Source of the DNA: a virus
Taxonomy: Duplodnaviria > Heunggongvirae > Uroviricota > Caudoviricetes
DNA length: 48,452 nucleotides
Strand: one strand, 5' to 3'
IMG/VR virus record: IMGVR_UViG_2718218453_000005
Shown here: positions 1 to 48,452 of the stretch, one piece after another
How positions within the stretch are numbered: position 1 is the first letter of the stretch
Layout of the letters: every line of letters starts with the position of its first letter
Translations under genes and position numbers: made by a program
The notes under the pieces: generated by a model
What the model was told of the DNA's origin: nothing
What the model saw: the letters and a program-made list of their open reading frames with translations, nothing else
The model's database searches: none

Positions 1-394
1 CACAACATCCGAGGACAGCATCGTCCGCTGGCCCACAGAAGTCCGGAAAGTCATGGAAGGTCGTTGTTGGGAGGAGGTACAAATTCTCTCATGCAAAAAA
101 TACGTAAAATCGATAATAGCTGGAAATAATTCAATACATGCACTCTCGAAAGTGCATCAGCCAACCGCAGAACGTTATTGCATACAACGTTTCTGCGGCA
201 TAATCCCAATGATTACTCCCTGACAGGGTTCGTAGGCCACTCAATATCAGGTGCAGTTGATGTATCAACACGGTTCAGCAACACCCGATACTTTTCCAGA
301 CTTCCAGCAACGAAGTTTCTTCCTCCGTTGCGATTTCCAGCTCAACAACAGTCTGAACGTACCAGGAACAGCCTCCTTCAGGGCTTGAAGGATA

Positions 395-3300
395 TCAATG
401 TTCGCTTCCTGTTAACTGCCCGACAAGTGCAACCAGTTCGCTTACCTGATTTTCCAGAGTGCTGATCCGGGTGCCTGCTGTTGCCAGATTTTCACGTAAC
501 GTTGTATTTTCCTCTTCCAGCGCGGTAACGCGATCATCTGTTTCACGGGCGACCTGAACAAGTAAGCCAGTCACGGCGGCGTAGTCAACATTCAGATAGC
601 GAGTTTCTTCGCGTAGCTCGTTGCCGTCAACGGTCGGACCTTGCAACTCTTCACCATAATGAGTAAACGATCCCACAGCTTCAGGTATCGCCTCCATTAC
701 TTCCTGTGCAATAACGCCAGCATAAGGCATTCCGTTTTCCTTGAGCGTGTAGGTGTATCCGTGCATTTTACGGATTGCTTTCGTCGCGTCGCTGATAACG
801 AGAATATCGTCTTTAAGGTCGCGGTCTGATGACTGATTCAGCGTTGTGCAATTAATAGCGCCATTTACATCAAACAACTGGCCTGCTGACGTTTTTTGCG
901 CATAAAACAGATACGCAGCAGACGTTCCAACCTCAAAAACGTTTTGTCGATCACTTGATCCCCATACTTTTGCGGCAAATGATAGTTCTGTATTACCTAA
1001 GTTCTGTAAAACAAAACGATTTCCAGTCCCTGTTTGTTTTGTAAGAGTTAAATCAACAGTTGAGTTAACCTCATTCTTGTTGATAGTGAGCGCCTGCGCT
1101 GTAGCTCCGTTAACAGCACCTGTTTTGAGTTGAACTGCTCCATCACTGCCATTAAGTAGAATCTCTGCATTACTATGGTAGTTCTTAAGTGACACCATTT
1201 TGCTTTCGCCTGAGTGCATACCTAACACCCACGCAGCGGAACTACCTGTACTGTTAAGGCCGAGAACATAGCATGACATTGCAGAAAAATCTGCAACGCT
1301 ACCAAGTATCTCTACCCTACCTCCACCGGATTTAACTGGTGATGATGTTGTTACTGACTTAACAGAAAGATCGGTTGCTGAATTGAGATCGTCAGCCGTA
1401 AGTAGTTTTTTCCATTCCTGAACCGTTCTGTTTTCAACTGTTCTTCCCCAAAAACCGGAATTGCGGCCTCCGAACTGCACAGCATAATTTTTACTAAATT
1501 GAACATGAATGCCGCCAAGAACCATAGAGCCTGCCGGGCCGTTTGTACTACCTGCGATTGGTCTAAATTTGTCGACGTTATCAGTATGCTGAGCGTTCCA
1601 GTCATGACCTGTTAATGTTGCGATTCCTGAGTTAGCTGTAATTAACCCAGACGCTTTAAGATTTTGCACATCAATTCTGTCGTTTGCGAAATTATATGCA
1701 ATTGCGTTACTAACGCTTCCGGCATCATCATAATCGCGTTTCTGAATAAACCAGTCGCCAGCATTAGCAATGAGAGTATAAGTAGGCGTGTTAGCCGGGC
1801 GATCTGTTTCATTAAATCTTATTGCTGGGTTAGCGCTCCTTATTTGTAAAGGTTTTTCAACCGTGGATTTCAGTATCGCACTATCTACAATTAAATTACC
1901 TTCTGAGGTAAAGTCTAGATATTTTGTAGCACCAGTTGAACCACCGTATGTAAATCTTATTGTTAATCGACCCTGCTCATTTGGAAAAGTCTGAACATAC
2001 ATATCAGCGGCAAGGCGCACAGTGTTGTCATTTGCTAACAGCCTCGTATGGAGCATTCCGCCAGTAGTGTATGCGCCAGTAGAATCACTATATCTATCAA
2101 GAAATAGACTGTTAAGTTGAGGGCTATTATCCCTGCCTAATCCAAGATGCGTTCTGGCACCATCAATAGTTGCCGCGCCAGTGCCACCATGAGAAACATC
2201 AAGCGGTATCCATTCTTTTTGTGTATCGCTGTAACAACCCCATGTTGATCCGGTTAAACCCAGGCGCATGGATTTATCATGGTTATATAACCATGTTTCG
2301 CTATTCCATTGGTCAAGACGGTCCACTTCATTTTTGCGAGCGTGGCGTGTCCATTGCGGGCCTGTTGTCGGACTCCAGCGATAGGTATAAAGCGAGCGAG
2401 TAGTCCATCCCTGAAATACACCTGTATACGCTGGTGTTCCATCTACCTGACTAATAAAACCAGTAAGATTACCTTCGCCTGATGCAATAGACGGAAAACC
2501 TGTTGCGGAAGCAAAAATGCGCATAAAGCCAATATAACCGGATGGATCACCGGAAATATCAGGACAATTGCGCGGTGATGATCCCAAACCGATGTTAGCA
2601 CCAACAATACCCTGAGCATGGTTGCGATAATTAAGTGCGTCCGCCGCAGATTTCGCCGCGTTTGTTTCACTGGATTTAGCATTAGTTTCGCTGGCTTTAG
2701 CGTTGGTTTCGCTGCTCTTTGCTGCTGCCTCGCTATTTTTCGCGTTGGTTTCTGATTTTTTGGCTGCTGTCGCGGAGTTTGCCGATGCAGTTTGTGAGTC
2801 TGCTGCCGCCTGTGCGCTGTTATCCGCATTCGTCTCAGACGTTTTTGCGGCCTTCGCGGAATTTCCTGCCGCCGTTGCCGAGGAAGCTGCACTACTGGCA
2901 CTTGATGATGCGTTCGTTTCTGATGATTTCGCTGCCTCTTTTGAGGCCGCCGCATCCCGGGCTGAGGTGGCAGCTTCTGACGCTTTCGTGGTCGCGGTGG
3001 ATGCAGAAGTGGCTGCAGATTTTTGTGACGCTGCAGCATTCGTTTCTGACGTTTTCGCCGCACCGGCACTGGTAGCCGCCGCGCTTTTTGAGGACTCTGC
3101 AGCGGCAGCACTTTTTTCCGCTTCAGTGGCCTTTGTTGATGCCGTTCCTGCGCTGGAAGACGCCTCCTGAGCCGACGACGCGGCCTGTCCGGCTGACGTG
3201 CTGGCTGCGCGTGCTGAGCCTGCAGCATCAGTCGCATGGGTTGCCGCCTCACGGGCAGATGTGCCGGCATCGCCGGCTGACTTCTTCGCGGCTGCCGTGT

Positions 3301-3667
3301 TCTGTGCCACCGCGGACGCGTTACGCGCCACCTCTTCCACCATCAGTTCAAAACGGCGCAGAGCCTCCGGACGGGCATCATCCTCCGTCATGGCACCGAG
3401 AAAATCATTCAGCGTACCCGGTTGTGAGTCTTCATACACGGTGATGGTCCCGGCATGCGATGGCGGGAAGCCTTCCACCAACAGAATAACGCTGTACTGA
3501 CCGTACTCAACGTCCATGCTGTAACGCCCGGCTTCATCCGGATTTTCTGAGGCCACCGTGTTCGCCACCACCGTGGTGCTGTTACGTTTTGCTTTCAGCT
3601 GGATTGTACAGTTCTGTACCGGTTTACCTGCACCGTCTTTCAGTACACCTGAAATCTTTACTGCCAT
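395..3667 (-). CDS. stf: side tail fibre protein (Stf-like) with C-terminal S74-type intramolecular chaperone domain
   Basis: ORF 395..3673 trimmed to first ATG (MAVKISGVLKDG...) preceded by GGGGTG; N-terminus matches lambda Stf as recalled; central Ala/Ser/Thr-rich SETNA-type repeats; C-terminal ~130 aa has SDRDLK-type start typical of peptidase S74 chaperone domains. Confidence 0.85.
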   Translation of the reverse strand: MAVKISGVLKDGAGKPVQNCTIQLKAKRNSTTVVANTVASENPDEAGRYSMDVEYGQYSVILLVEGFPPSHAGTITVYEDSQPGTLNDFLGAMTEDDARPEALRRFELMVEEVARNASAVAQNTAAAKKSAGDAGTSAREAATHATDAAGSARAASTSAGQAASSAQEASSSAGTASTKATEAEKSAAAAESSKSAAATSAGAAKTSETNAAASQKSAATSASTATTKASEAATSARDAAASKEAAKSSETNASSSASSAASSATAAGNSAKAAKTSETNADNSAQAAADSQTASANSATAAKKSETNAKNSEAAAKSSETNAKASETNAKSSETNAAKSAADALNYRNHAQGIVGANIGLGSSPRNCPDISGDPSGYIGFMRIFASATGFPSIASGEGNLTGFISQVDGTPAYTGVFQGWTTRSLYTYRWSPTTGPQWTRHARKNEVDRLDQWNSETWLYNHDKSMRLGLTGSTWGCYSDTQKEWIPLDVSHGGTGAATIDGARTHLGLGRDNSPQLNSLFLDRYSDSTGAYTTGGMLHTRLLANDNTVRLAADMYVQTFPNEQGRLTIRFTYGGSTGATKYLDFTSEGNLIVDSAILKSTVEKPLQIRSANPAIRFNETDRPANTPTYTLIANAGDWFIQKRDYDDAGSVSNAIAYNFANDRIDVQNLKASGLITANSGIATLTGHDWNAQHTDNVDKFRPIAGSTNGPAGSMVLGGIHVQFSKNYAVQFGGRNSGFWGRTVENRTVQEWKKLLTADDLNSATDLSVKSVTTSSPVKSGGGRVEILGSVADFSAMSCYVLGLNSTGSSAAWVLGMHSGESKMVSLKNYHSNAEILLNGSDGAVQLKTGAVNGATAQALTINKNEVNSTVDLTLTKQTGTGNRFVLQNLGNTELSFAAKVWGSSDRQNVFEVGTSAAYLFYAQKTSAGQLFDVNGAINCTTLNQSSDRDLKDDILVISDATKAIRKMHGYTYTLKENGMPYAGVIAQEVMEAIPEAVGSFTHYGEELQGPTVDGNELREETRYLNVDYAAVTGLLVQVARETDDRVTALEEENTTLRENLATAGTRISTLENQVSELVALVGQLTGSEH

Positions 3668-3731: not shown

Positions 3732-4331
3732 TCAGAACTTATAACCAACACCCACGATGAAACCGTCAGTGCGCCAGTCGCCACTGCCGGAGCCTTCATA
3801 AGCAATATCAATGGCCACGGATTCGGTCGGGTTAAACTGCACGCCAGCCCCCCACGCCAGAGACGTGTTGCTGTGGCGACCGTCATCACTTCCGGTCAGC
3901 ACGTCGTGCGTTTTCCCCTTGTTGTCAGTTACGCGGAGATAATCCCCGGAGAAAGTCGACACACGGCTGTAAGCCACACCCGCCATCGCATACGCGCTGA
4001 ACCATTCATTCACGCGCACAGACGGCCCCGCCATCACGCTGAACCAGCGGTTACGAACGGAATCTTCATGCCAGCGGGTATCGCTGTAACGGGTCAGCTG
4101 GCGATTCTTGTCTCCTGCATAGCTGAATGAGGTCACCATCCCCAGTGTGTCCGTAAACTCATAACGGTATTTCACGTTAATCCCGTTCAGATCATCGCTG
4201 CCGGGAACGTTCGTCCGGGCATGAAGATACCCCGCGCTCAGCGTGGACTGATGTTCAGACGCCCATGCAGGCGCACCGGATACGGCCAGACAGATGGCTG
4301 CGGACAAAATGGCTGCACAAACTTTACGCAT
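3732..4331 (-). CDS. lom: outer membrane protein Lom (Ail/Lom family)
   Basis: 199 aa, signal peptide, beta-barrel-like alternating pattern, C-terminal F; position between J and stf as in lambda; SD GAGAGG. Confidence 0.85.
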   Translation of the reverse strand: MRKVCAAILSAAICLAVSGAPAWASEHQSTLSAGYLHARTNVPGSDDLNGINVKYRYEFTDTLGMVTSFSYAGDKNRQLTRYSDTRWHEDSVRNRWFSVMAGPSVRVNEWFSAYAMAGVAYSRVSTFSGDYLRVTDNKGKTHDVLTGSDDGRHSNTSLAWGAGVQFNPTESVAIDIAYEGSGSGDWRTDGFIVGVGYKF

Positions 4332-4397: not shown

Positions 4398-7799
<3,402 letters not shown>

Positions 7800-7856
7800 T
7801 CACGCTCCATAAACGACAAAACCGCCCGGAGGCGGTTTCACATAAAACATTTTGCC

Positions 7857-8504
7857 TCAGCGACCAATCACCACAACCTGACCACCGTCCCCTTCGTCTG
7901 CCGTGCTGATCTCCTGAGAAGCCACCCGCGACCCCACGCGCATTTCACCGTACAGAACAGGCAGAACATTGCCCTGGGCAACCATGTTATCCAGTGAGGA
8001 GAAATAGGTGTTCTGCTTACCGTTATCCGTTGTCTGTGTACGGGGAGTTCTGGCTTTCGGTGCCAGCATCTGCGCCACACCGCCAAGGATCATACTGGCC
8101 CCCGCAGCATACATGCCCGATAAAGCCGCAGCTCCCAGCCAGCCTGCAGGGTTCCACCACGCCACTGCAATCAGCGCCGCACCCAGCACCGCCTGAAACA
8201 CACCGCCACTTTTTGCTCCCGCAAGACGCGGAACGATGTGGATCACGGCACCATTTTTCAACGGCTCATTAAGACGGGCTGATAATTCGTTTTCGCCTGC
8301 ATCACGCCCGGCAATGCGCACCTGATACCAGCCCTCATTCAGTTTCTGACGAAACGCCGGGAGCTGTGTGACCAGTGCCCGGATGGCTTCAGCCCCCGTT
8401 TTCACACGAAGGTCGATGCGGCGGCCAAATCGTTGCAAATCCCCGTAAAGGCAGATGCGTGCCATGCCCGGTGACGCCAGAGGGAGTGTGTGCGTCGCTG
8501 CCAT
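7857..8504 (-). CDS. I: tail tip assembly protein I
   Basis: 215 aa; MAATHTLPLASPGMARICLYGDLQRF and C-terminal ...VSQEISTADEGDGGQVVVIGR match lambda I; ATG start; overlaps K by 103 nt as in lambda. Confidence 0.85.
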   Translation of the reverse strand: MAATHTLPLASPGMARICLYGDLQRFGRRIDLRVKTGAEAIRALVTQLPAFRQKLNEGWYQVRIAGRDAGENELSARLNEPLKNGAVIHIVPRLAGAKSGGVFQAVLGAALIAVAWWNPAGWLGAAALSGMYAAGASMILGGVAQMLAPKARTPRTQTTDNGKQNTYFSSLDNMVAQGNVLPVLYGEMRVGSRVASQEISTADEGDGGQVVVIGR

Positions 8505-9145
8505 TTGTCGGTGTACCTCTCTCGTTTACTCAGTTGTTCAGGAATATGGTGCAGCAGCTCGCCGTCGCCACAGTAAATGGCGGCATGATTCGGCACCGAT
8601 GAACCAAAACAGCACAGCAGCACGTCGCCAGGCTGCGCCTCTGTCAGTGGGACACGGTAAAAACCCGTTGCCTCCATATTGTCAAGATAGAGATTCTGGC
8701 CGTGACGCCACCAGTCATCCCCGCGATGAAAATCCGGCATCTCAATTCCTGCCAGATGGTAAGCGTCCCGGAACAGCGTGTAACAGTCCGTCACCCCGTG
8801 CTCAAAGCGCCGCCCGGTGAGATGCGGCACACAGAGGAATTTATGAATCGCCCCCCGGCAGACCAGCCACCACGGCAAATCACTCTGCACCTGCAGCCGC
8901 CGGTCGGCCTCACTCAGCCAGGGCAGACCACCGGGGTGGCTGTGGACCAGCGCCACAATCTCTCCCTGCATTTCTGCACTCAGCCAGTCCTCCGGCGACA
9001 TCCGGAAATACTCCTCCGGCTCACCGGAGATATTCACGCAGGGAAAATATCTTTCTCCCTCCGGCGTTCTCACCACGAAGCCGCACGACTCTGCTGGCGC
9101 ACATCGCCGGGCGTGCGCCAGAATCGCTGATTCTGTCTCTGTCAT
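8402..9145 (-). CDS. K: tail tip assembly protein K (JAB/MPN plus NlpC/P60-like)
   Basis: 247 aa ORF from ATG; HSHPGG...SEAD JAB-type metal site and C-terminal Cys/His region; lambda K-like. Confidence 0.85.
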   Translation of the reverse strand: MTETESAILAHARRCAPAESCGFVVRTPEGERYFPCVNISGEPEEYFRMSPEDWLSAEMQGEIVALVHSHPGGLPWLSEADRRLQVQSDLPWWLVCRGAIHKFLCVPHLTGRRFEHGVTDCYTLFRDAYHLAGIEMPDFHRGDDWWRHGQNLYLDNMEATGFYRVPLTEAQPGDVLLCCFGSSVPNHAAIYCGDGELLHHIPEQLSKRERYTDKWQRRTHSLWRHRAWHASAFTGICNDLAAASTFV

Positions 9146-9150
9146 GGGAT

Positions 9151-9849
9151 TTACTGCGAAAGTTTGTTAATGGAAAGGAAGCCGCCAAAGTTGCCGACGT
9201 TATTGCGAAACTTACAGCCGCTCAGGCATTTGCTGCATTTATCCTTCGTGATATCGGACGTCGGCTGGTCATATTCATCCGCGACAGCCGGACCGTGATA
9301 ACCGCACTCATCACCGCGATAGGTCCAGGTGCAGGTATTAGCCAGCATGATGCGCCCCGGAAAAACGGCACCATCCGTTTCCGTCGGTGTGGAGAGCACA
9401 AAGGAGGCACTGACCGCGCTCAGTTCGCTGCACTGCTCGATGCGCCAGCGGCTGATCACCTCCTGCTCCGGATCGGCGTCACTGTTTCCGTTGACGAAGT
9501 TCACCGCATCCAGAAAACGGGCGTAAACCTTACGCCGGACCACCGTTCCGCCGACCAGACTCTGCAGATCTTCCGCCATCCCGGTGATCATGCCGTGCAG
9601 GTTAGAGACCGTCAGTGTCGGACGGGCAGCACTGCCCTTGCCGTTCATCTCAAATCCACTCCCCTGAATGGGATAGGCCTGATACTGCCGACTCTGCCAG
9701 GTGACAGACTCACCTTTTTCGTTCTGCTCATTACAGAAAAAGTAGCGATCCCCGCCTACCTCGGTCAGGTCGATTTCCCAGAGCACCACGCTGGCCGACT
9801 GCTCCGCACGAATGCATTCATTCAGCGTTTCCTGTTGTATGTCCTGCAT
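9151..9849 (-). CDS. L: minor tail protein L
   Basis: 232 aa, [28 protein letters not shown]... and C-terminal CSKCLSGCKFRNNVGNFGGFLSINKLSQ as lambda L. Confidence 0.9.
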   Translation of the reverse strand: MQDIQQETLNECIRAEQSASVVLWEIDLTEVGGDRYFFCNEQNEKGESVTWQSRQYQAYPIQGSGFEMNGKGSAARPTLTVSNLHGMITGMAEDLQSLVGGTVVRRKVYARFLDAVNFVNGNSDADPEQEVISRWRIEQCSELSAVSASFVLSTPTETDGAVFPGRIMLANTCTWTYRGDECGYHGPAVADEYDQPTSDITKDKCSKCLSGCKFRNNVGNFGGFLSINKLSQ

Positions 9850-10187
9850 CAGATTACCACTTCGTCAAACTGACACGAAAAATCGGTATAGGTGATATGT
9901 TCTGTCGCTGACCACGTTCGACACACCACTCTGATTTTTCTGTTAATACCCGGCGGGCGCCAAAAAAAAGATTTATAGCCTTCATGCCGGGCTAAAAATT
10001 TTTCAAATGAATCACGTTCATTCGCCTCAACTTTGAAATCACAGGTGAAAACGCGCAGAGAATGATTAAGTCCATTTGGACTTCGTTGCTCATAACCATC
10101 GCCAAATCTTACAGTTTTTATCGATGGTTTATTTTCTGTTTTCATTCCATCCTCTGGTAACCAGTGAAATTCTTCCGTATTAGCCAC
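9849..10187 (-). CDS. M: minor tail protein M
   Basis: 112 aa; [12 protein letters not shown]... and C-terminal FDEVV resemble lambda M; position between tape measure and L. Confidence 0.8.
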
Positions 10188-13100
10188 TTAACATTCCCCC
10201 ATCACGTCGCATATTTAACAGATTGCCCTGCACCCGCTGATCAACCATCCCCATAAGTGCTTTTATTGCCTGAGGGCCAATCTCTCCATTCTGGCCGTCA
10301 TTTTGAATAGTGATTTGGTATACAGGGGCATAGGTAATATCTCCGCCTCCATTACCACTTTTACTATTAATAGCTCTGACACCAAGAGAACCATCGGAAG
10401 TTCGTGTTAATGGCATAATGGCTTCCGGACCAGCCTCACCAAAAACACCAGCCCCTCTTGCAAAAGCAAAAAATTGCGGGGAATCATAAATACCGTTCGA
10501 ATACGTGTTCAATGACGGAGACTCATAAACACCGCCCTTTGCATTCGGAATAAATTTACTAATAGCACTCCCGATAGTTCCTAAAATCCCCCCAGAAGAA
10601 CTGTTACTAATGCTGTCGAAAATCCCAGTAATTGAAGCCTTTAATGCTATTCGACTAAGATCCGAAATCACGGAAGTAGCGAAAGAACGAAAATTTGCCT
10701 TGCCTGTCGTGACAAAATCACCCAGCGCATCGGTCATTCCATCAAACATCTGAGTCGTGGTTGATTTTATCTGCTCACTGATATCCTTAGTGTCATCCAG
10801 CCAGTTATTGAATCCCTGGGAGGCACCACTAACCCAGTCTCCTGCCTGAATATCGAGCTGCTCGTTTTTCTGTCTGACAATTTCTTTTTCTCGTTCCAGA
10901 GCATCATTCAGAGCCTGCATTTTCTCCTGAAAAACATGATTTGACATCCCACGGGATTTATCTGCATAGTCACGTTCAAGTTGCAGACGCTGATTGTTAT
11001 ATTCACGTTCAATCCGCAGTAATTCCTGCTGGCGTTGCTGATTTTTATCGCCAACCCCATAACCAGCAATCTGAATATCATACCCCTGTTGACGATTATC
11101 AATCGAAGCCTGCAATGAATCACGCCATGCAGCTATTTCGGCGGATTCCTTGATTAGCCTGTTATTTTTTTCAATCGCAACATTTTTCTCCATCAACGCG
11201 GTTATTTCTTCCCGGTGTAAGAGAAGCGATTTCTGATCCTGGGTTAATTTCGATGACGGTCGTGACTCCAGGTCGGCAATCTGCTGACGCCACTTAACCA
11301 GTTCCTGTTCAGAGGAACTTAATTTAACGGTTAATTCAGTTTGTGAACTTAGTAACGCATTCTGTTGATTCAGATGATCAATCATTCGTTGGGCAGCATC
11401 ATCCGAATAACCTTTCGCCTTTGGTTGCTTTGGATCTTTATAACGTTCATTTATTTGAGCGATAAAATTATTATATTCTTCCTTTGAATACTGACTCTTT
11501 AGCTTTTCCAGTTTTGCAAGTTCACTAGCTCTCTGCTGCTCCCGGGTCTGATATTGTTTTGAAAAGGCATCTGCTCTCTGTCTGAGTTCAATTCCTTCCT
11601 GTTGTCGCTTGTTGTAATCGTTTATTGATGAATTTAGGACGTCCTGAGCAATTTTTTCTGCTTGAAGTACGCCCAATTGCTGCTTTAATCGTGCCAGCCT
11701 TTTATTTTGAGCTCCGCCATCTCCAATGCCACCTAACCCGAAAACTCCGGGTCGGGTATTTTTTTCTATTTCATCAATTTGACGGAGAACATCTGAGATT
11801 TTTTGATCAAGGGAGGCCTCACGGCCAATATCCAGCATGGAATCCCATGCCCATTTTGCGGAGTCTGCGACAGCTTTCCATGCAGTCTCAAGATAACCAA
11901 GATTTTCTTTAATCTGGTTGGTGCGCTGGATCATTGAGGATGAGTATGCTTCTGTCGCAATGCGGGCGGCCTCCTGCTGGTTCCCTTCATCCTGTAGCGC
12001 CTTAATCTGGTTATAAGTCGCAATTGTCAGAAAATGGTACTGATCATTAAGTTTTGATATGGCACTGACAGGATCCTTTGCAATTTCATTGAAGTCATTA
12101 ACCAGTTGTTCGGTTGATATTCCTGTTACTTCGCTCGTTTTTACTATCGCTGTCGTCACTTGCTCCAGCGAACTGCTCGCTACCTTTCCCGAACGCACAA
12201 GCTGGTTTAATACTGCCGCCGCAGCGCCAGTTGTCGAATCAGCCGCATTCCCGGCACGTTGAGCTATATCGGCCAATTGCCCGCTGGTTGTCCCCAACTG
12301 ATTTCCGGTAAGAATAAGAGATTTATTAAATTCGTCCTGCTCCTGAGAGCCTTTATAGTAAGCCAGCCCTAAGACGCCAACGGCTGCTGCGGCCAGGGTA
12401 AAAGGATTAATTAATCCCAGCACATAAGAACCAACACCTTTGATCGCCGGGCCAATCCCACCGAACATATCTTTTAGCTGGCCGCCCTGCTGCATTAACA
12501 CCATAAAAGGCGACTGACCAGTGGACAACCCAACAACAATATCCGTCATTTGTGCAGGCAACATGCGCATAGCAAAAGCCGTTTGTTTTGCCGACATTCC
12601 GGTTTTGCTTAATTGAGATTGAGTAACCTCAAGCTCACTCCGCATAGCACGAAGTTTTCCAGAAAGTTCCTCATACATTTCAGGAGAGAGCATCCCCTTA
12701 GCTTTTGCTTCATTGAGCTGTTTCTGTTGTTCTACCAGACGATTAAAAGCAGTTCCGACAGGGTCAAGTTGAGCAATCAGACGTTGCAAAGCAGCAACCT
12801 GTTCATCATGCGCTTTTGCTGCTTCTCGCTCTGCCTGAGCCTCTCCGGTAAGCTCTCGCCGTGTTTCCTGTATTTTTCGGCTATAATTCTCAAACTGAGA
12901 ACCATTTATTTTCCCGGATGCAAACGCAGCATTAAGTTCATCCTGCTGTTGTTCAAGATTTCTTAGCGCCGCAGCCAGAGGGTCGATCTTGTCCAGCATT
13001 CTTTGAAAGGCCTGAGCCTGCGCTTCCTGCTGGGCGGCAGCAAGTTTTCCGGCCTTCTCGGCTTCTCTCTGCGCTTGCGCAACCCCGCTCAATTCCTCTG

Positions 13101-13413
13101 TGGTTTCATTAAGTTTACGGACAAGAAATTCATATTCTTCTTTATCAATAAGCCCTTTATCGAAAAATTTCTTTAATTCAGAATAGCGTCGACCGACAGT
13201 ATCAATTGCGGCACCAACTGGATCAATAGCTGCTTTTAATTTTGCGAGCGCGTTCTTCTCATCTTCTGTTGCCTTGGTCACTTTCCCTGCGCTATTTGCA
13301 GCAGTTTCCCCGGCCTGCGTCATTTTGACTAATGAGGAGGTCAGATTGTCAGCATTATTTTTTGCTCCAGTGCTATCAATAATTATTGCGAGACGCGAGG
13401 TTTGCTCTGCCAT
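10180..13413 (-). CDS. tail tape measure protein
   Basis: 1077 aa, highly alpha-helical/coiled-coil, Gly-rich hydrophobic segment, located between GT chaperone and M; SD GGAG before ATG. Confidence 0.85.
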
Positions 13414-15357: not shown

Positions 15358-15383
15358 AGGAGCCTCCTATGTCATTAATTGCG

Positions 15384-15776
15384 CTAGAGCGCGCGATATG
15401 GAATTTGAAGATTAAGCTGGAACCAGCCATTCTTTTCGCCGACGGCTATTGAGGAAACAGCCTGGTAACTGAGACGATCGTCATCCTGAAACTCAAACAG
15501 TTCCCGCAATTTATCGGCTGTCTCAGTAATGAGTTTTGAACCAGAACCTGCGGGGACAAATAACTGAATAATGATTATCCCCGTGCGATAAACAACCGGC
15601 CCCGCGCCAATTTCATTAACTCCAGCCTGCCCGGGAATATTACTTAACCGCGCCCAGATTAACTTACCGGAAGGATCGAACGTTGGCCCGTTCGGATACA
15701 ATACGTCTTTTCCATCAATAATCGTCTGTGCCGTCATTCTGGAAATAACCGTATTTCTGATTTCAGTAAACTTCAT
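15384..15776 (-). CDS. tail terminator protein (lambda U-like)
   Basis: 130 aa, N-terminus MKFTEIRNTV resembles lambda U MKHTELRAAV; position before tail tube gene. Confidence 0.55.
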   Translation of the reverse strand: MKFTEIRNTVISRMTAQTIIDGKDVLYPNGPTFDPSGKLIWARLSNIPGQAGVNEIGAGPVVYRTGIIIIQLFVPAGSGSKLITETADKLRELFEFQDDDRLSYQAVSSIAVGEKNGWFQLNLQIPYRAL

Positions 15777-16932: not shown

Positions 16933-16935
16933 GTG

Positions 16936-28720: not shown

Positions 28721-28723
28721 TAA

Positions 28724-40766: not shown

Positions 40767-40997
40767 ACGCTCTCAAATGTACCTTTTGCAACATCGTATT
40801 GACTCGAAAGGTAACTCTTGTTACCTTAACGGCATACCAACCCACCCCACCCCACAGAATGCAGGGCAATACTTCGAGTTACCAGGCAGTGGTCAGGGGT
40901 TAAGTAGCCAGCCCGAGGCGTATGAACATGACGGCGGGATTCAAATTTTGCAGTGCAGCAGTTAGTTCCGCCACCCGGCGTTAAAGGGAGAGATAAG

Positions 40998-41132
40998 ATG
41001 GTGCATTACGAAGTAGTTCAATATTTGATGGATTGTTGCAGTATCACTTACAGCCAGGCTGTGCAGGCTTTACGCAGCAACGACTGGGATCTCTGGCAGG
41101 CAGAAGCCTCTATCCGCAACAACAAGATGTGA
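40998..41132 (+). CDS. ydaG: YdaG-like small protein (44 aa)
   Basis: my translation MVHYEVVQYLMDCCSITYSQAVQALRSNDWDLWQAEASIRNNKM; AGGGAGAG SD; below ORF-track cutoff. Confidence 0.6.
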   Translation: MVHYEVVQYLMDCCSITYSQAVQALRSNDWDLWQAEASIRNNKM

Positions 41133-41142
41133 GGTGCGAAAA

Positions 41143-41298
41143 ATGCAAAAAATCGACCTCGGCAACAACGAATCCCTGGTGTGCGGCGTGTTCCCCAACC
41201 AGGATGGAACGTTCACTGCCATGACGTATACCAAAAGCAAAACATTTAAAACCGAAACTGGTGCGCGCCGATGGTTGGAGAAGCACACAGTAAGCTAA
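41143..41298 (+). CDS. ydaF: YdaF-like small protein (51 aa)
   Basis: my translation MQKIDLGNNESLVCGVFPNQDGTFTAMTYTKSKTFKTETGARRWLEKHTVS; 3' end overlaps sieB stop convergently. Confidence 0.6.
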   Translation: MQKIDLGNNESLVCGVFPNQDGTFTAMTYTKSKTFKTETGARRWLEKHTVS

Positions 41299-41783
41299 CG
41301 ATTAAAACGTCTACTCCTGCTGTTCCAGAATAACTTCATAAAATGGGAGTATTTTTCGGTGACGAGATAATAAGAACAGTTTGCGCTATCACTCTGATGT
41401 TGAATGATGCCCTTCCGTTCTAATTTTTTCATAACCGGGTTACGGCAAGGAGAAGTGATAATAAGATTTCCTGTTTTAAGGAAATCTTTAAATACAGCGA
41501 TTTCTTTCTCAGATAAACGAAGCAATACTCGTTGCTCTGGTAGTAATGAATAATGCTTTTGAATATGTGCTCGCAATCTTGAGAAGGAAATGGCGACCAC
41601 GAAAGAAAAGGCAAAAACGATAATCTGAAAGAGCCAAGGTATTTCAGTATAAGCATTGAATGCGACAGTAAACTCTTTCGGTATCAGCCAGAGAGTGAGA
41701 CCAAAAATGATAATCGTATACATAAGTCTTTCGAGTGGCTCGTTAGCAAAAAGTTTCAACAATGGAGTAAATACATCCAACAT
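41295..41783 (-). CDS. sieB: superinfection exclusion protein B
   Basis: 162 aa from ATG at MLDVFTPLLKLFANEPLE...; two N-terminal TM helices; matches Rac/lambda SieB as recalled. Confidence 0.85.
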   Translation of the reverse strand: MLDVFTPLLKLFANEPLERLMYTIIIFGLTLWLIPKEFTVAFNAYTEIPWLFQIIVFAFSFVVAISFSRLRAHIQKHYSLLPEQRVLLRLSEKEIAVFKDFLKTGNLIITSPCRNPVMKKLERKGIIQHQSDSANCSYYLVTEKYSHFMKLFWNSRSRRFNR

Positions 41784-42001
41784 ATCAATAACTCTCAACT
41801 GTAAGGGTATTGAAATGTTAACACAAGCTCTCGCTGTAGGGGTATAGCCGAGACCACCGAAGCCCGGAGGTGGTGAAATAAAACCGGGCACAACACGAAG
41901 GCGCATTTCCGATATCCATAAAGAGTCGGTCTTGTCTGTTAAATTTAAATGGTGGGAGTGCGCCTCCGGTTGTAAATAACGACATTGCTGTGTGTAGTCC
42001 T

Positions 42002-42050
42002 GGCGGCATCAGTTTTTTCTTGAAGTTCGGCTGATGTCCGCCCTTTTTTA
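42002..42050 (+). terminator. terminator-like hairpin upstream of kilR (tL-like)
   Basis: GGCGGCATCAG...CTGATGTCCGCC stem with long loop followed by CTTTTTTAA. Confidence 0.4.
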
Positions 42051-42223
42051 AGTGAATTTTGTGATGCGGTGAATGCGGCTAAGCGCACGTGGCACAGTTA
42101 AAAGTCATGTTAGTCCTTATTGGTTTGGGTGGGAAAGCCGACTGTAATTGTTAACTGGTTGCAGTCACCTGGAGGCACCAGGTACCGCATCAACAAAGTT
42201 CATTTGTAAAAATGGAGATAATT

Positions 42224-42445
42224 ATGATTGCACATCACTTCGGAACTGATGAAATACCACGTCAGTGTGTGACTCCTGGCGATTATGTTCTTCATGAAGG
42301 CCGGACATATATTGCCTCGGCAAACAATATTAAAAAGCGAAAACTATATATTCGTAACCTGACCACAAAAACATGCATTACTGACCGCATGATTAAAGTC
42401 TTCCTCGGTCGTGATGGTTTACCTGTAAAGGCGGAGTCATGGTGA
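42224..42445 (+). CDS. kilR: FtsZ inhibitor KilR
   Basis: 73 aa from [38 protein letters not shown]...; GGAG SD; matches K-12 KilR as recalled. Confidence 0.85.
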
Positions 42446-42615
42446 TGACTAAGAAAATAAAATGTGCTTACCACCTTTGCAAAAAAGACGTTGAAGAAAG
42501 CAAAGCTATTGAAAGAATGCTTCACTTCATGCACGGGATTTTATCAAAAGACGAACCGAGAAAATATTGCAGTGAATCTTGTGCCGAAAAAGACCAGATG
42601 GCACATGAACTTTAA
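42445..42615 (+). CDS. ydaE: YdaE-like small Cys-rich protein
   Basis: 56 aa [14 protein letters not shown]...CSESCAEKDQMAHEL; ATG overlaps kilR stop (TGATG). Confidence 0.7.
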   Translation: MTKKIKCAYHLCKKDVEESKAIERMLHFMHGILSKDEPRKYCSESCAEKDQMAHEL

Positions 42616-42689
42616 TTAATTGACTATTCGAAACTGAATTTATGCCAGAAATGGCAGGTATTCGCTCAACCTTAATTAAGGAGAAAAAC

Positions 42690-42935
42690 ATGATTACCAA
42701 TTATGAAGCCACTGTTGTAACTACCGATGACATTGTTCACGAGGTGAATCTGGAAGGAAAGCGCATTGGCTACGTAATTAAAACAGAAAATAAAGAAACC
42801 CCATTCACTGTGGTTGATATCGATGGTCCATCAGGCAACGTAAAAACACTTGATGAAGGTGTCAAAAAAATGTGCCTGGTGCATATCGGAAAGAATCTGC
42901 CCGCAGAAAAAAAGCCGAATTTCTGGCAACTCTAA
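42690..42935 (+). CDS. racC: RacC-like protein
   Basis: trimmed to ATG (MITNYEATVV...) with AAGGAG SD 7 nt upstream; ORF-track start 42642 possible alternative. Confidence 0.7.
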   Translation: MITNYEATVVTTDDIVHEVNLEGKRIGYVIKTENKETPFTVVDIDGPSGNVKTLDEGVKKMCLVHIGKNLPAEKKPNFWQL

Positions 42936-43065
42936 TTGCAATGAAATTAAAAGGTGAAATCTGAAAGAAATAGCCTGCGTATGGCGCAGGCTATGAACAG
43001 TGTGTATCCGGCAAGATCATTCACTGAACAAAACGAATTTTAATCTGAGTTGAGGTTAAAAAACA

Positions 43066-45666
43066 ATGAGCACAAAACCACTCTTCCTGTTACGGAAAGC
43101 GAAAAAATCATCCGGTGAACCTGACGTCGTCCTGTGGGCAAGCAACGATTTTGAATCGACCTGTGCCACTCTGGACTACCTGATCGTTAAGTCAGGTAAA
43201 AAACTGAGCAGCTATTTTAAAGCTGTTGCCACGAATTTTCCTGTCGTTAATGACCTGCCCGCTGAAGGTGAGATCGATTTTACCTGGAGTGAACGCTATC
43301 AACTCAGCAAAGACTCCATGACATGGGAACTAAAACCGGGAGCAGCACCAGACAACGCTCACTATCAAGGCAATACCAACGTCAACGGCGAAGACATGAC
43401 TGAGATTGAGGAGAATATGCTACTCCCAATTTCTGGCCAGGAACTGCCCATTCGTTGGCTTGCTCAACACGGCAGCGAAAAACCGGTAACGCACGTTTCA
43501 CGCGACGGACTCCAGGCATTACACATTGCTCGGGCTGAAGAACTACCGGCTGTTACTGCCCTGGCTGTTTCCCACAAAACCAGCCTGCTCGACCCGCTGG
43601 AAATTCGCGAACTCCACAAACTGGTTCGTGACACTGACAAAGTTTTCCCTAATCCTGGTAATTCAAACCTGGGACTGATAACTGCTTTTTTCGAAGCATA
43701 CCTGAACGCTGACTACACCGATCGAGGACTGCTGACAAAAGAGTGGATGAAGGGTAATCGTGTTTCACACATCACTCGCACGGCTTCCGGTGCTAATGCT
43801 GGCGGCGGAAACCTCACCGATCGCGGCGAAGGTTTCGTACACGATCTGACGTCACTGGCGCGCGACGTAGCCACTGGCGTACTGGCCCGTTCAATGGATC
43901 TGGACATCTATAACCTTCATCCGGCACACGCTAAACGCATTGAGGAAATTATCGCTGAAAATAAACCGCCCTTTTCTGTTTTCCGCGACAAATTCATCAC
44001 CATGCCTGGCGGGCTGGATTATTCCCGCGCCATCGTGGTTGCGTCCGTAAAAGAAGCACCAATTGGGATCGAGGTCATCCCCGCGCACGTCACTGAATAT
44101 CTGAACAAAGTACTGACTGAAACCGATCATGCCAACCCTGATCCGGAAATCGTGGATATTGCCTGCGGTCGCTCCTCTGCCCCGATGCCGCAGCGAGTAA
44201 CAGAAGAAGGAAAACAGGATGATGAAGAAAAACCGCAACCATCTGGAACAACGGCAGTTGAACAGGGAGAGGCTGAAACAATGGAACCGGACGCAACTGA
44301 ACATCATCAGGACACGCAGCCGCTGGATGCTCAGTCACAGGTAAATTCTGTTGATGCGAAATATCAGGAACTGCGGGCAGAACTCCATGAAGCCCGGAAA
44401 AACATTCCATCAAAAGATCCTGTCGATGCCGATAAATTGCTTGCTGCATCACGTGGTGAATTTGTTGACGGAATTAGCGACCCGAACGATCCGAAATGGG
44501 TAAAGGGGATCCAGACTCGCGATTGTGTGTACCAGAACCAGCCAGAAACGGAAAAAACCAGCCCGGATATGAATCAACCTGAGCCAGTAGTGCAACAGGA
44601 ACCGGAAATAGCCTGCAATGCCTGCGGCCAGACTGGCGGGGATAACTGCCCTGACTGTGGTGCGGTGATGGGCGACGCAACATACCAGGAAACATTCGAT
44701 GAAGAGAGTCAGGTTGAAGCTAAGGAAAATGATCCGGAGGAAATGGAAGGCGCTGAACATCCGCACAATGAGAATGCTGGCAGCGATCCGCATCGCGATT
44801 GCAGTGATGAAACTGGCGAAGTCGCAGATCCCGTAATCGTAGAAGACATAGAGCCAGGTATTTATTACGGAATTTCGAATGAGAATTACCACGCGGGTCC
44901 CGGTGTCAGTAAGTCTCAGCTCGATGACATTGCTGATACTCCGGCACTATATTTGTGGCGTAAAAATGCCCCCGTGGACACCACAAAGACAAAAACGCTC
45001 GATTTAGGAACCGCTTTCCACTGCCGGGTACTTGAACCGGAAGAATTCAGTAACCGCTTTATCGTAGCACCTGAATTTAACCGCCGTACAAACGCCGGAA
45101 AAGAAGAAGAGAAAGCGTTTCTGATGGAATGCGCAAGCACAGGAAAAACAGTTATCACTGCGGAAGAAGGCCGGAAAATTGAACTCATGTATCAAAGCGT
45201 TATGGCTTTGCCGCTGGGGCAATGGCTTGTTGAAAGCGCCGGACACGCTGAATCATCAATTTACTGGGAAGATCCTGAAACAGGAATTTTGTGTCGGTGC
45301 CGTCCGGACAAAATTATCCCTGAATTTCACTGGATCATGGACGTGAAAACTACGGCGGATATTCAACGATTCAAAACCGCTTATTACGACTACCGCTATC
45401 ACGTTCAGGATGCATTCTACAGTGACGGTTATGAAGCACAGTTTGGAGTGCAGCCAACTTTCGTTTTTCTGGTTGCCAGCACAACTATTGAATGCGGACG
45501 TTATCCGGTTGAAATTTTCATGATGGGCGAAGAAGCAAAACTGGCAGGTCAACAGGAATATCACCGCAATCTGCGAACCCTGTCTGACTGCCTGAATACC
45601 GATGAATGGCCAGCTATTAAGACATTATCACTGCCCCGCTGGGCTAAGGAATATGCAAATGACTAA
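43066..45666 (+). CDS. recE: exodeoxyribonuclease VIII (RecE)
   Basis: 866 aa; long acidic N-terminal region and C-terminal nuclease domain; matches Rac RecE as recalled; followed by overlapping recT. Confidence 0.95.
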
Positions 45667-46468
45667 GCAACCACCAATCGCAAAAGCCGATCTGCAAAAA
45701 ACTCAGGGAAACCGTGCACCAGCAGCAGTTAAAAATAGCGACGTGATTAGTTTTATTAACCAGCCATCAATGAAAGAGCAACTGGCAGCAGCTCTTCCAC
45801 GCCATATGACGGCTGAACGTATGATCCGTATCGCCACCACAGAAATTCGTAAAGTTCCGGCGTTAGGAAACTGTGACACTATGAGTTTTGTCAGTGCGAT
45901 CGTACAGTGTTCACAGCTCGGACTTGAGCCAGGTAGCGCCCTCGGTCATGCATATTTACTGCCTTTTGGTAATAAAAACGAAAAGAGCGGTAAAAAGAAC
46001 GTTCAGCTAATCATTGGCTATCGCGGCATGATTGATCTGGCTCGCCGTTCTGGTCAAATCGCCAGCCTGTCAGCCCGTGTTGTCCGTGAAGGTGACGAGT
46101 TTAGCTTCGAATTTGGCCTTGATGAAAAGTTAATACACCGCCCGGGAGAAAACGAAGATGCCCCGGTTACCCACGTCTATGCTGTCGCAAGACTGAAAGA
46201 CGGAGGTACTCAGTTTGAAGTTATGACGCGCAAACAGATTGAGCTGGTGCGCAGCCTGAGTAAAGCTGGTAATAACGGGCCGTGGGTAACTCACTGGGAA
46301 GAAATGGCAAAGAAAACGGCTATTCGTCGCCTGTTCAAATATCTGCCCGTATCAATTGAGATCCAGCGTGCAGTATCAATGGATGAAAAGGAACCACTGA
46401 CAATCGATCCTGCAGATTCCTCTGTATTAACCGGGGAATACAGTGTAATCGATAATTCAGAGGAATAA
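45659..46468 (+). CDS. recT: recombinase RecT (single-strand annealing protein)
   Basis: 269 aa from [19 protein letters not shown]...; 8-nt overlap with recE stop. Confidence 0.95.
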
Positions 46469-46524
46469 TTCAGCCTGGCGGTGTAATGCACCGCCAACTT
46501 GAAATATTTTTTATGAGAAAAATT

Positions 46525-46719
46525 ATGAGATATGACAATGTTAAACCATGTCCATTTTGTGGTTGTCCATCAGTAACGGTGAAAGTCATTTCAGGATATT
46601 ACCGAGCGAAGTGTAACGGATGCGAATCCCGAACCGGTTATGGTGGAAGTGAAAAAGAAGCACTCGAAAGATGGAATAAACGAACCACTGGAAATAATAA
46701 CGGAGGTGTTCATGTATAA
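46525..46719 (+). CDS. ralR: restriction alleviation protein RalR / Lar
   Basis: 64 aa from ATG MRYDNVKPCPFCGCPSVTVK...; two CxxC pairs; matches Rac RalR as recalled. Confidence 0.85.
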   Translation: MRYDNVKPCPFCGCPSVTVKVISGYYRAKCNGCESRTGYGGSEKEALERWNKRTTGNNNGGVHV

Positions 46720-46900
46720 AATTACCGCCACTATTGAAAAGGAAGGTGGCACTCCTACTAACTGGACAAGATATTCAAAATCTAAACTAACGAAATCAGA
46801 ATGCGAAAAAATGCTCTCAGGTAAAAAAGAAGCAGGCGTTTCCAGAGAGCAGAAAGTAAAACTGATAAATTTTAATTGCGAGAAACTTCAGTCCTCGTGA
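46712..46900 (+). CDS. ydaC: YdaC-like protein
   Basis: 62 aa from ATG MYKITATIEKEGGTPTNWTRYSK...; overlaps ralR stop. Confidence 0.75.
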   Translation: MYKITATIEKEGGTPTNWTRYSKSKLTKSECEKMLSGKKEAGVSREQKVKLINFNCEKLQSS

Positions 46901-46999
46901 ATTGCATTGTATTCAAATTAAAACTTCATAGCTGATTATTAATAATCAACATCGGGCGTCAATTTCAGTCTAACATTGGCGCCTGCCAGAGGTGATGCG

Positions 47000-47215
47000 A
47001 TGGCACAAGTAATCTTTAATGAAGAGTGGATGGTTGAATACGGCCTGATGCTTCGCACTGGTCTGGGGGCCAGACAAATTGAAGCATACCGCCAGAACTG
47101 TTGGGTGGAGGGCTTCCACTTCAAACGAGTATCTCCTTTAGGTAAGCCAGACAGCAAACGAGGGATTATCTGGTACAACTATCCAAAGATAAATCAGTTT
47201 ATCAAAGACTCATGA
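47000..47215 (+). CDS. xis: excisionase
   Basis: 71 aa from [36 protein letters not shown]...; immediately upstream of int (stop 1 nt before int ATG). Confidence 0.8.
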
Positions 47216-47216
47216 T

Positions 47217-48452
47217 ATGTCTAAATTACCAACAGGTGTCGAGATTAGAGGTAGATACATTCGCATCTGGTTCATGTTTCGAGGAAAACGATGTCGGGAA
47301 ACATTAAAAGGCTGGGAGATTACAAACAGTAATATTAAAAAGGCCGGAAATTTAAGAGCGCTGATAGTTCATGAAATAAACTCCGGTGAATTTGAGTATT
47401 TAAGACGTTTTCCCCAGTCCAGCACTGGGGCAAAAATGGTGACAACGAGAGTCATAAAAACGTTCGGAGAGCTTTGTGATATCTGGACAAAAATTAAAGA
47501 GACAGAGTTAACAACAAACACAATGAAGAAAACGAAATCACAATTAAAAACACTCAGAATAATAATTTGTGAAAGTACCCTGATATCACATATTCGTTAT
47601 AGCGATATCTTAAACTACCGGAATGAACTGCTGCATGGAGAAACGCTTTACCTGGATAATCCAAGATCCAACAAAAAAGGAAGAACCGTGCGCACAGTTG
47701 ATAACTATATCGCCCTGCTCTGTTCGCTGTTACGTTTTGCGTATCAGTCGGGATTTATATCAACCAAACCATTTGAAGGAGTAAAAAAATTACAGCGAAA
47801 CAGAATAAAGCCTGATCCGTTATCTAAAACAGAATTCAATGCATTAATGGAAAGTGAAAAAGGACAGAGCCAGAACATGTGGAAATTTGCAGTTTACTCA
47901 GGACTTCGTCACGGGGAACTGGCAGCTCTGGCGTGGGAGGATGTGGATCTCGAAAAGGGAATAGTGAATGTCAGAAGAAACCTGACGATACTTGATATGT
48001 TCGGTCCCCCAAAAACAAATGCCGGGATCCGGACAGTAACACTACTGCAGCCTGCTCTTGAAGCACTGAAGGAGCAATACAAACTGACCGGGCATCATCG
48101 CAAAAGCGAAATCACCTTTTATCATCGGGAGTACGGCAGAACCGAAAAGCAAAAACTGCATTTTGTTTTCATGCCCAGGGTGTGTAACGGAAAACAAAAA
48201 CCTTATTACTCGGTAAGCAGTTTGGGGGCAAGGTGGAATGCAGCAGTAAAACGTGCTGGTATTCGCCGCCGTAATCCGTACCATACGCGGCATACTTTTG
48301 CCTGCTGGCTGTTGACGGCAGGAGCGAACCCGGCATTTATAGCCAGCCAAATGGGGCATGAAACTGCGCAGATGGTGTATGAAATTTACGGTATGTGGAT
48401 TGATGACATGAACGACGAACAGATAGCCATGTTGAATGCGCGGTTATCATAG
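47217..48452 (+). CDS. int: tyrosine site-specific integrase
   Basis: 411 aa; C-terminal catalytic region with R...HTRHT...Y pattern (NPYHTRHTFACWLL, MGHETAQMVYEIY); ends at last base of window. Confidence 0.95.
   Translation: MSKLPTGVEIRGRYIRIWFMFRGKRCRETLKGWEITNSNIKKAGNLRALIVHEINSGEFEYLRRFPQSSTGAKMVTTRVIKTFGELCDIWTKIKETELTTNTMKKTKSQLKTLRIIICESTLISHIRYSDILNYRNELLHGETLYLDNPRSNKKGRTVRTVDNYIALLCSLLRFAYQSGFISTKPFEGVKKLQRNRIKPDPLSKTEFNALMESEKGQSQNMWKFAVYSGLRHGELAALAWEDVDLEKGIVNVRRNLTILDMFGPPKTNAGIRTVTLLQPALEALKEQYKLTGHHRKSEITFYHREYGRTEKQKLHFVFMPRVCNGKQKPYYSVSSLGARWNAAVKRAGIRRRNPYHTRHTFACWLLTAGANPAFIASQMGHETAQMVYEIYGMWIDDMNDEQIAMLNARLS

Follow-up and report, generated by a model that had tools for sequence, protein, structure and literature searches.

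Does a prophage in which the genes for building and releasing particles are all open also possess a working switch to lytic growth? The question is raised by a 48,452-nucleotide caudoviral stretch (IMG/VR record IMGVR_UViG_2718218453_000005; hereinafter the window, that is, the whole stretch analysed), which a first reading of the letters, hereinafter the original prediction, had taken for an intact Rac-type prophage and perhaps an inducible, ancestor-like form of the Rac element of Escherichia coli K-12. We find it probable, at roughly three chances in four, that the window holds most of a mosaic Rac-family lambdoid prophage of 52.4 kb, which would be structurally complete, a recombinant sibling of K-12 Rac, and probably not inducible by the SOS response. 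The one substantive new point that we would draw from these comparisons is that, for this prophage, a complete gene set need not imply SOS inducibility: the lytic genes are all open, and the repressor is without the nucleophile for its autocleavage, so that intact by gene content is not the same as inducible.

A Rac-family lambdoid element in ttcA

The window is found at 100% identity in the chromosome of E. coli EC07 (NZ_CM169494.1, 2581743-2630194) and likewise in strain 1-62, two independent complete genomes from different hosts, and a third genome comes close to this over the whole window. In EC07, base 1 of the window directly follows the stop codon of sitD and the last base is that of the intR stop codon. 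The attachment (att) repeat, a direct but imperfect repeat of 43 bp (91% identical), has both copies outside these limits: the left one lies in the spacer between uspF and sitA, at the position of the ttcC remnant in K-12, and the right one in the 5′ end of ttcA, which intR abuts, 59 bp past the last window base. From att to att the element measures 52,405 bp, with 3.85 kb of it beyond the left window end. Hence, the idea of an intact prophage in the window largely holds for its gene content but not for the element as a whole, since both att repeats and the sitABCD operon fall outside. A tRNA scan detected no tRNA genes in the window, and an element seated at a tRNA site was rejected on this ground.

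Both the integration system and the early left arm are those of Rac. IntR (99.5% identical to its K-12 counterpart) and XisR (100%) accompany the ttcA site with its ttcC remnant, the same site and enzymes as in K-12 Rac, and the element would have entered the 5′ end of ttcA by their action. The 7.6-kb segment from intR to ydaG aligns with K-12 by blastn at 99.5% nucleotide identity (Table 1), and SieB, KilR, YdaE, RecE, RecT, RalR, RcbA (formerly YdaC), XisR and IntR are 98-100% identical to the K-12 proteins. The arm also includes ydaF, ydaG and the RalA RNA (46718-46896, minus strand; Rfam match, 225 bits). The original prediction had read this arm as K-12 Rac content, and so it is, save that racC (42690-42964) is frameshifted in both the Prokaryotic Genome Annotation Pipeline (PGAP) annotation and our translation of its open reading frame (ORF). 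The gene order of the window, int-xis-rec-sieB-cI-cro-rep-nin-Q-lysis-terminase-head-tail-stf, is that of a lambdoid phage, and includes nucleotide blocks 88-92.5% identical to lambda.

The two halves of the window differ in their distribution when counted separately across 5426 complete E. coli genomes: at a threshold of at least 80%, the structural half (1-24000) is held by 672 of them, and positions 24001-48452 by only 3. For example, CE0021a, 190 and NDM1 match 1-24000 at 100%, with NDM1 additionally possessing 94% of the right half.

Deletions behind the cryptic Rac of K-12

Whole-element alignments recovered four blocks shared with the cryptic K-12 Rac (NC_000913.3, 1411899-1434958; blastn), all collinear with the window (Table 1), and three shared with lambda. 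At the K-12 junction 14236|25797 (2-bp overlap, AA), 11,560 bp have been lost (window 14237-25796), comprising the head and tail-shaft genes; at 4129|12479 (2-bp overlap, CA), the loss is 8,349 bp (window 4130-12478), running from the tape measure gene, the greater part of which is gone, through J. A third deletion, mapped on the element of strain N31 (locus L008, 4728-12380), spans 7.65 kb from the DUF1627 gene to the start of Rz, and again shows a 2-bp overlap; K-12 Rac is also devoid of the nin/Q/holin/endolysin block and has an IS5 in lom. Because the segments flanking the two junctions are collinear and 98.5-99.9% identical, K-12 Rac demonstrably derives, as judged by alignment, from the backbone that it shares with the window element, by way of three internal deletions and the arrival of an IS5. 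Deletion junction A of K-12 is present in 348 of the 5426 genomes.

Several K-12 gene names thereby become legible as scars of the three mapped deletions and the one IS5, namely ydaW, rzpR, ynaK, ydaY, ynaA and lomR. The K-12 ydaW consists of 150 DUF1627 codons fused to Rz sequence, ynaK of the 86 codons at the start of a 263-codon gene for a ParB-fold protein, and ynaA of the 312 codons with which the tape measure gene begins (99% identity), whereas ydaY (119 amino acids [aa], TTG start; locus L003, 18622-18981) is a 5′-truncated chaperone gene and an artefact of the deletion junction. PGAP carries the 119-aa ydaY call into wild strains, where the real gene has 153 aa and a -1 extension to 256 aa; together with its calls of a ynaK pseudogene, this spreads K-12 artefacts. 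We rejected the PGAP label of ynaK as a pseudogene with a missing C-terminus, as homologues matching the 263-aa ORF over its full length occur in Lactobacillus phages at 40% identity.

Strain N31 has a full-length element with the racR-ydaSTUV region of K-12 at 99.7% identity. By these alignments, it is N31 that represents the truly K-12-like full-length form, and the window copy is a recombinant sibling of K-12 Rac and not its ancestor. Thus, of the proposed ancestor-like status, the full-length Rac-family backbone at ttcA was borne out, but the immunity, replication and cargo block (~33.2-40.8 kb) is of other origin. The elements also differ at their far ends, where K-12 has tfaR-pinR-ynaE and the window element has sitABCD.

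An immunity and replication block from outside Rac

Between 28228 and 40831 blastn finds no nucleotide match to K-12. In place of racR-ydaS-ydaT-ydaU-ydaV, the window has a LexA/cI-type repressor at the RacR position, a P22-type Cro, a YdaT-family protein and another replication initiator; the Cro does not match K-12 YdaS, the YdaT-family protein is only 33% identical to K-12 YdaT, the initiator shares just its last 19 residues with YdaU, and the block is without YdaV. The earlier claim that ydaS, ydaT and ydaU match K-12 is accordingly contradicted, and neither the RacR/YdaS/YdaT switch nor YdaU/YdaV-type replication of Rac is present.

The closest counterpart of the replication module is in phage Tritos (OV696610; PMC9928086), which resembles the window in the YdaT-family protein, an initiator 98.6% identical, the DUF977 gene, a variable cargo slot and hok; it differs in its 140-aa repressor with no S24 domain and in its integrase, integration site, structural genes and cargo. 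Tritos, from E. coli LF82, forms plaques and is without a DnaC-like gene (PMC9928086), and the phage record Evi has the same order of initiator and DUF977 with no loader gene. We hence rejected the absence of a DnaC-like YdaV as a replication defect, and the presence of the same module in the plaque-forming Tritos argues that it works with no such loader. At a minimum of 98% identity, the immunity module recurs in 80 IMG/VR prophage loci, in which the similarity always ends at 40989 and the left arms are non-Rac, pointing to a mobile unit of lambdoid mosaics.

Three perfect copies of the palindrome GTAAC-N4-GTTAC, a count reached in no shuffle, lie at 40000, 40048 and 40811; we mark the first two as the putative right operator (OR) and the third as the putative left operator (OL). 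The second OR copy (40048-40061) falls inside the 5′ end of cI as annotated, and many cI homologues begin at a methionine corresponding to residue 15; translation of cI therefore probably begins with the ATG at ~40062. Promoters and terminators predicted in the early region did not exceed the shuffle expectation and were not used.

A CI-like repressor with alanine in place of the catalytic serine

The repressor is a protein of 238 aa with HTH_3 and Peptidase_S24 domains (Pfam), which we aligned with 18 database homologues, lambda cI and PDB 3BDN. The invariant catalytic lysine (K197/K198) is retained, and a Q-A-G at 112-114 aligns with the A111-G112 region of lambda, where the bond is cut. However, the nucleophile motif G-x-S-M of the self-cleaving S24 repressors (LexA, lambda cI, UmuD) is broken: residue 151 is alanine (GCG, 40470-40472), giving G-D-A151-M-T against G-N-S149-M-T in lambda cI, the family consensus being G-[DE]-S-M with serine in this column in 15 of the 19 compared sequences. 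A serine-to-alanine change at the nucleophile reportedly abolishes the autocleavage of LexA and lambda cI. Since alanine replaces the nucleophile, the repressor would not cleave itself on activated RecA and the classical SOS route would be closed, making SOS induction by repressor autocleavage unlikely; we infer for the prophage poor or non-classical induction.

The alanine is no peculiarity of this locus. It is found in 80 of 80 close IMG/VR relatives, in P0001 (499-member cluster; 99% identical to the window repressor) and in homologues at 89% (P0002) and 68% identity (P0005, from Salmonella), while those at 87% (P0003) and 66% (P0006) have serine, as do the distant homologues (12 from the database and lambda cI, 26-52% identity) except P0022, whose motif is degenerate. 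This interleaving of alanine- and serine-bearing relatives implies that the nucleophile state has switched at least twice, with alanine kept over ~30% divergence. No repressor of this type (>45% identity) was recovered from 50,697 phage genome records. Taken together, the persistence of alanine to 68% identity with interleaved serine, the 499-member cluster, the 80 of 80 IMG/VR loci and the absence from sequenced phages suggest a further reading, which we offer tentatively and at a little short of even odds, namely that the alanine-type CI is a long-maintained, widespread repressor marking structurally complete lambdoid prophages with a switch uncoupled from RecA. Were this so, prophages of the alanine class called intact by tools such as PHASTER would either be locked carriers of cargo beneficial to the host or answer another trigger.

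There are parallels for such a switch. The repressors of the Gifsy prophages and coliphage 186 are likewise expected not to cleave themselves; they are said to be non-cleavable, with induction by an antirepressor whose gene is under LexA. The window differs from these systems in having neither a LexA box (CTGT-N8-ACAG, zero matches in the window) nor a recognisable antirepressor gene among its annotations. A LexA-controlled antirepressor, which we considered as a candidate trigger, therefore gains no support from the search of the window.

An apparently complete particle gene set with an HK639-like head and a composite tail

On translation of all PGAP genes, every one is open except racC and the tfa remnant, and the structural, lysis and replication ORFs have matches of family length; the check for frameshifts in essential genes that the original prediction called for thus turned up no truncation, only the decay of racC and tfa. 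For each function in particle building and release, the window seems to possess an open gene of full length.

As predicted, the head is not that of lambda, and it is joined to a tail with a lambda-like tip. The terminase, portal, MuF-like, scaffold-position and capsid genes are all present, and window proteins yielded no homologues of the lambda head set Nu1-A-W-B-C-Nu3-D-E (blastp, E<1e-3); instead, Pfam recognises Terminase_2, Terminase_6N/6C, DUF4055, Phage_Mu_F, DUF6651 and P22_CoatProtein. On full-length protein comparisons, the nearest named relative of the head module is phage HK639 (NC_016158), with the same gene order, the capsid at 75%, DUF6651 at 65%, MuF at 50% and the portal at 69% identity, and a small gp07-like protein also within this 50-75% range. 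The likeness ends there, as HK639 is unrelated or distant in its terminase, in both the shaft and the tip of its tail, and in its immunity and early regions. The window terminase shows similarity neither to lambda Nu1/A nor to that of HK639, and sequence searches of the PDB with the large terminase subunit gave no matches.

The tail is lambda-like only in part. DNA resembling lambda (NC_001416) occurs in three segments only: 4840-9871 (J, I, K, L; 92.5% identity), reaching the border of M; 2826-3859 (3′ lom and 5′ stf; 88%); and 27793-28702 (R and Rz; 91.6%). At the protein level, the tail-tip components are 79-93.5% identical to those of lambda (J 89%, I 79%, K 93.5%, L 93.5%), as against 87% for the N-terminal 284 aa of Stf and 93-95% for R/Rz. 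The last ~130 residues of J (window 4398-4790) drop to ~40% from 89-100% over the first 1000, which implies a swapped receptor-binding domain and, if so, a receptor specificity unlike that of lambda. Thus, while the predicted resemblance of the tail to that of lambda holds for L/K/I/J and the Stf N-terminus, it fails for the tail shaft: M is 42% and the tape measure (H) 28% identical to lambda, and the tube, terminator, connector and chaperone proteins have no lambda match by blastp. Apart from the common gene order, lambda further differs in that its Nu1, A, W, B, C, Nu3, D, E, FI, FII, Z, U, V, G and T are without detectable similarity in the window, in its Exo/Bet in place of RecET, and in its replication proteins and integrase.

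The G-like chaperone ORF of the tail (13885-14346, 153 aa) matches phrog_313 and ends with the slippery sequence A_AAA_AAG; a simulated -1 shift at this site yields an open 256-aa fusion ending at 13577. As the original prediction had it, lom and stf are free of insertion sequences (IS) and open (199 and 1090 aa), and the lysis cassette is uninterrupted, with holin, endolysin, Rz and Rz1 all open. Lom is a distant homologue of its lambda counterpart (45% identity). Stf has phage_tail_N at 1-134 and Peptidase_S74 at 947-998, and its first ~300 aa are 85-97% identical to K-12 StfR in pairwise alignment. The tfa remnant aligns with lambda Tfa and K-12 TfaR over only 17 aa, a loss that should be tolerable because Stf ends in its own S74 chaperone.

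As we reconstruct it, the element would thus be a joining of six blocks: the Rac arm from int to ydaG; a block of cI, Cro, YdaT-family and Tritos-type replication genes that recurs in many non-Rac prophages; a shared nin/Q/lysis region; an HK639-like head; a tail shaft of its own; and a lambda-like tail tip.

Alternative readings

Full-length Rac-like prophages at ttcA, mosaicism of lambdoid heads and tails, and sitABCD morons are already documented, and the element is in these respects of a known kind common in wild E. coli. Rac is said to be intact in EDL933 (Lawrence et al., 2001, as cited by a review). The published precedent for an intact Rac is KingRac, a Rac-like lambdoid prophage of 46.8 kb which, in the mouse gut, took the place of K-12 Rac at ttcA (Frazão et al., 2019, PNAS, PMC6731689); compared by its description only, it is like the window element in being full-length and Rac-like at ttcA, and is 5.6 kb shorter. 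As an active Rac-like prophage, KingRac lends some weight to the view that the window, too, is an intact SOS-inducible prophage and an ancestor-like form of K-12 Rac, as do the complete structural, lysis and recombination genes, the Ala-Gly site and catalytic lysine kept in the S24 domain, and the collinear K-12 segments of at least 98.5% identity. We nonetheless deem this view unlikely, given the alanine at the nucleophile here and in all 80 close relatives, the foreign immunity and replication block, and the existence in N31 of a real K-12-like form (99.7% over racR-ydaSTUV). Inducibility as originally proposed is consequently doubtful: the lytic gene set is complete, but Ala151, the absence of a LexA box in the window and the absence of the repressor type from the 50,697 phage genomes speak to the contrary. 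GenBank holds records of intact prophages whose structural module is 99.7-99.8% identical to that of the window; these, including the vB_EcoS-… phage records, are PHASTER predictions, and we rejected them as proof of virions, likewise leaving SPF_0923 unused as proof.

That those records are predictions and not virions agrees also with a grounded prophage, whose lytic cycle was lost beyond the repressor, through an oversized genome or cryptic missense changes, and which is kept for the benefit of its cargo. In keeping with this are genes of possible use to the host (sitABCD, trkG, the Tmn-like NTPase, sieB and the toxin-antitoxin loci), several kb of low-GC (guanine plus cytosine) cargo, the att-to-att length of 52.4 kb against 49.6 kb in HK639, the failure to recover the repressor type in any sequenced phage, and the decay of racC and tfa. 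Yet truncations are absent from the essential genes, the programmed frameshift signal is preserved, and near-identical structural modules in 672 genomes with no visible decay suggest recent or continuing horizontal spread; we consider grounding possible but on balance doubtful. The strongly mosaic composition might also have arisen by misassembly of two prophages, which is improbable in the extreme, as the window recurs at 100% identity in two independent genomes and nearly so in a third, and the mosaic joints (~9.9, ~33 and ~40.9 kb) coincide with the borders of gene modules, as expected of lambdoid recombination.

Against our own reading of a structurally complete prophage that is probably not SOS-inducible weigh several points. 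The alanine state is old and maintained (in the 89% and 68% homologues, with serine in the 87% one), and a maintained alanine would fit a functional phage with another trigger, such as a trans-acting antirepressor, equally well as a locked prophage. KingRac is weakly inducible by mitomycin and forms tailed particles (PMC6731689). Inactivating point mutations may be present in the open genes, and the excess of the 52.4 kb over the HK639 genome bears on packaging capacity.

Cargo genes

The element is heavily laden with cargo: sitABCD, trkG, hok/sok, ralR/RalA and sieB, along with two systems worth testing, a Tmn-like NTPase and a ParB–TAGT pair. The iron/manganese transporter operon sitABCD (EC07 locus L005, 12294-15743; 3.4 kb coding) lies directly to the left of window base 1 and inside the prophage, between the left att copy and the tfa remnant. 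Lambdoid phages often have this operon as a moron behind their tail-fibre genes, as in phage 21, ev207 and Perceval.

The YobI/Tmn-like KAP-type P-loop NTPase occupies the variable cargo slot between DUF977 and hok, where Tritos, Evi and N31 have other genes. It has a Walker A motif at residues 42-49, two transmembrane helices (122-148 and 170-193) inside the NTPase domain, and a PADLOC match to Tmn (1e-66) limited to its N-terminal 440 aa, making it a candidate anti-phage gene.

Directly upstream of the small terminase gene, the ParB-fold and TAGT genes overlap, combining the ParB-fold partner and DxD-bearing TAGT transferase characteristic of a hypermodification pathway. Such pairs, in the same orientation and with abutting or overlapping frames, stand upstream of the terminase in five of six contexts (the window, phiLdb, jlb1, L092/L093 and L095), in Lactobacillus phages and metagenomic contigs with terminases of several types, and the glycosyltransferase remains 60-65% identical even in non-enterobacterial sequences; a PDB sequence search with it gave no matches. 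In the pathways published, the role of ParB is to activate a 5mYOX dioxygenase, which makes the hydroxymethyl acceptor, and that of the transferase to glycosylate the hydroxymethyl base. No TET/JBP dioxygenase is annotated anywhere in the window or in the five other neighbourhoods of the pair, the Pfam scan having covered the cassette proteins only; the window pair would thus be without the dioxygenase partner of the published pathways.

Feature map and minor observations

Table 1. Features of the window, followed by the four blocks that it shares with K-12 Rac
Feature	Coordinates	Strand	Basis or remark
tfa (tail-fibre assembly) remnant, pseudogene	213..346	-	134 bp; PGAP: frameshifted, incomplete
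Stf side tail fibre, 1090 aa, C-terminal S74 intramolecular chaperone	395..3667	-	Pfam; lambda and K-12 homology
lom, 199 aa, open, no IS	3732..4331	-	Both K-12 lomR fragments flanking IS5 map here
J, I, K, L tail tip genes	4398..9849	-	92.5% nucleotide identity to lambda 13407-18461
M-like protein (112 aa) and tape measure (1077 aa; 10180-13413)	9849..13413	-	Distant lambda homology
Tail assembly chaperone pair, G/GT type	13577..14346	-	-1 slippery site A_AAA_AAG at 13897-13891
Tube-to-adaptor region, including 58-aa protein	14395..17112	-	Pfam, PHROG; no lambda match by blastp
Phage_tube_2 tail tube	14395-15357	-	Pfam
Adaptor, head-closure, tail-completion, tail-terminator	15384-16932	-	PHROG connector families 179, 169, 161, 493
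P22-coat-fold capsid, DUF6651 scaffold-position protein, MuF-like, DUF4055 portal	17155..21764	-	Pfam
Terminase large (433 aa) and small (364 aa)	21767..24143	-	Terminase_6N/6C and Terminase_2
Pre-terminase cassette: 69-aa ORF, TAGT glycosyltransferase, ParB-fold protein	24147..26050	-	Pfam
TAGT-family (GREB1-related) glycosyltransferase, 310 aa	24334-25266	-	PF20691 at 3e-35; invariant D102-D103-D104
ParB-fold protein, 263 aa, full-length	25259-26050	-	ParB_N at 23-90
trkG potassium transporter	26188..27645	-	100% to K-12 TrkG; GC 0.39
Lysis cassette	27783..29065	-	All ORFs open
Rz	27783-28247	-	93% to lambda Rz
Rz1, embedded in Rz	27842-28027	-	Nearly identical to lambda Rz1
Endolysin	28244-28720	-	95% to lambda R
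Holin	28724-29065	-	Open ORF
Q-like antiterminator, DUF1133	30204-30746	-	Pfam DUF1133; Phage_antitermQ match weak
Q-like antiterminator, YbcO and DUF1367, nin-region equivalent	30204..31632	-	Pfam
hok/sok type I toxin-antitoxin	32923..33216	-	PGAP Hok/Gef; Rfam sok 101 bits
YobI/Tmn-like KAP-type P-loop NTPase, 1210 aa	33696..37328	-	Pfam YobI-ATPase 8e-123; GC 0.30-0.34
Replication module: 356-aa initiator (replisome organizer) and DUF977	37728..39261	-	Initiator full-length to phrog_3729
YdaT-family protein (cII position) and P22-type Cro	39333..39970	-	Pfam YdaT_toxin, P22_Cro
Immunity region, operators and cI-like gene (40020-40736)	40000..40824	+	Pfam HTH_3, Peptidase_S24
ydaG, ydaF, sieB (-), kilR, ydaE, racC, recE, recT, ralR/RalA, rcbA, xisR, intR	40832..48452	+	K-12 homology
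K-12 block: two lomR fragments and stfR 5′ end	2826-4129		95.7-98.1%
K-12 block: ydaY and ynaA	12479-14236		98.5%
K-12 block: rzpR/rzoR, trkG, ynaK	25797-28227		99.9%
K-12 block: intR…ydaG	40832-48452		99.5%

The nin/Q/lysis region has the same protein accessions as in strain N31. At a moron position between Q and the holin gene, the minus strand at 29413-29982 codes for a 189-aa protein of phrog_11870, and a 113-aa TehB-family fragment is encoded at 32499-32840 on the plus strand, opposite to the adjoining hok/sok.

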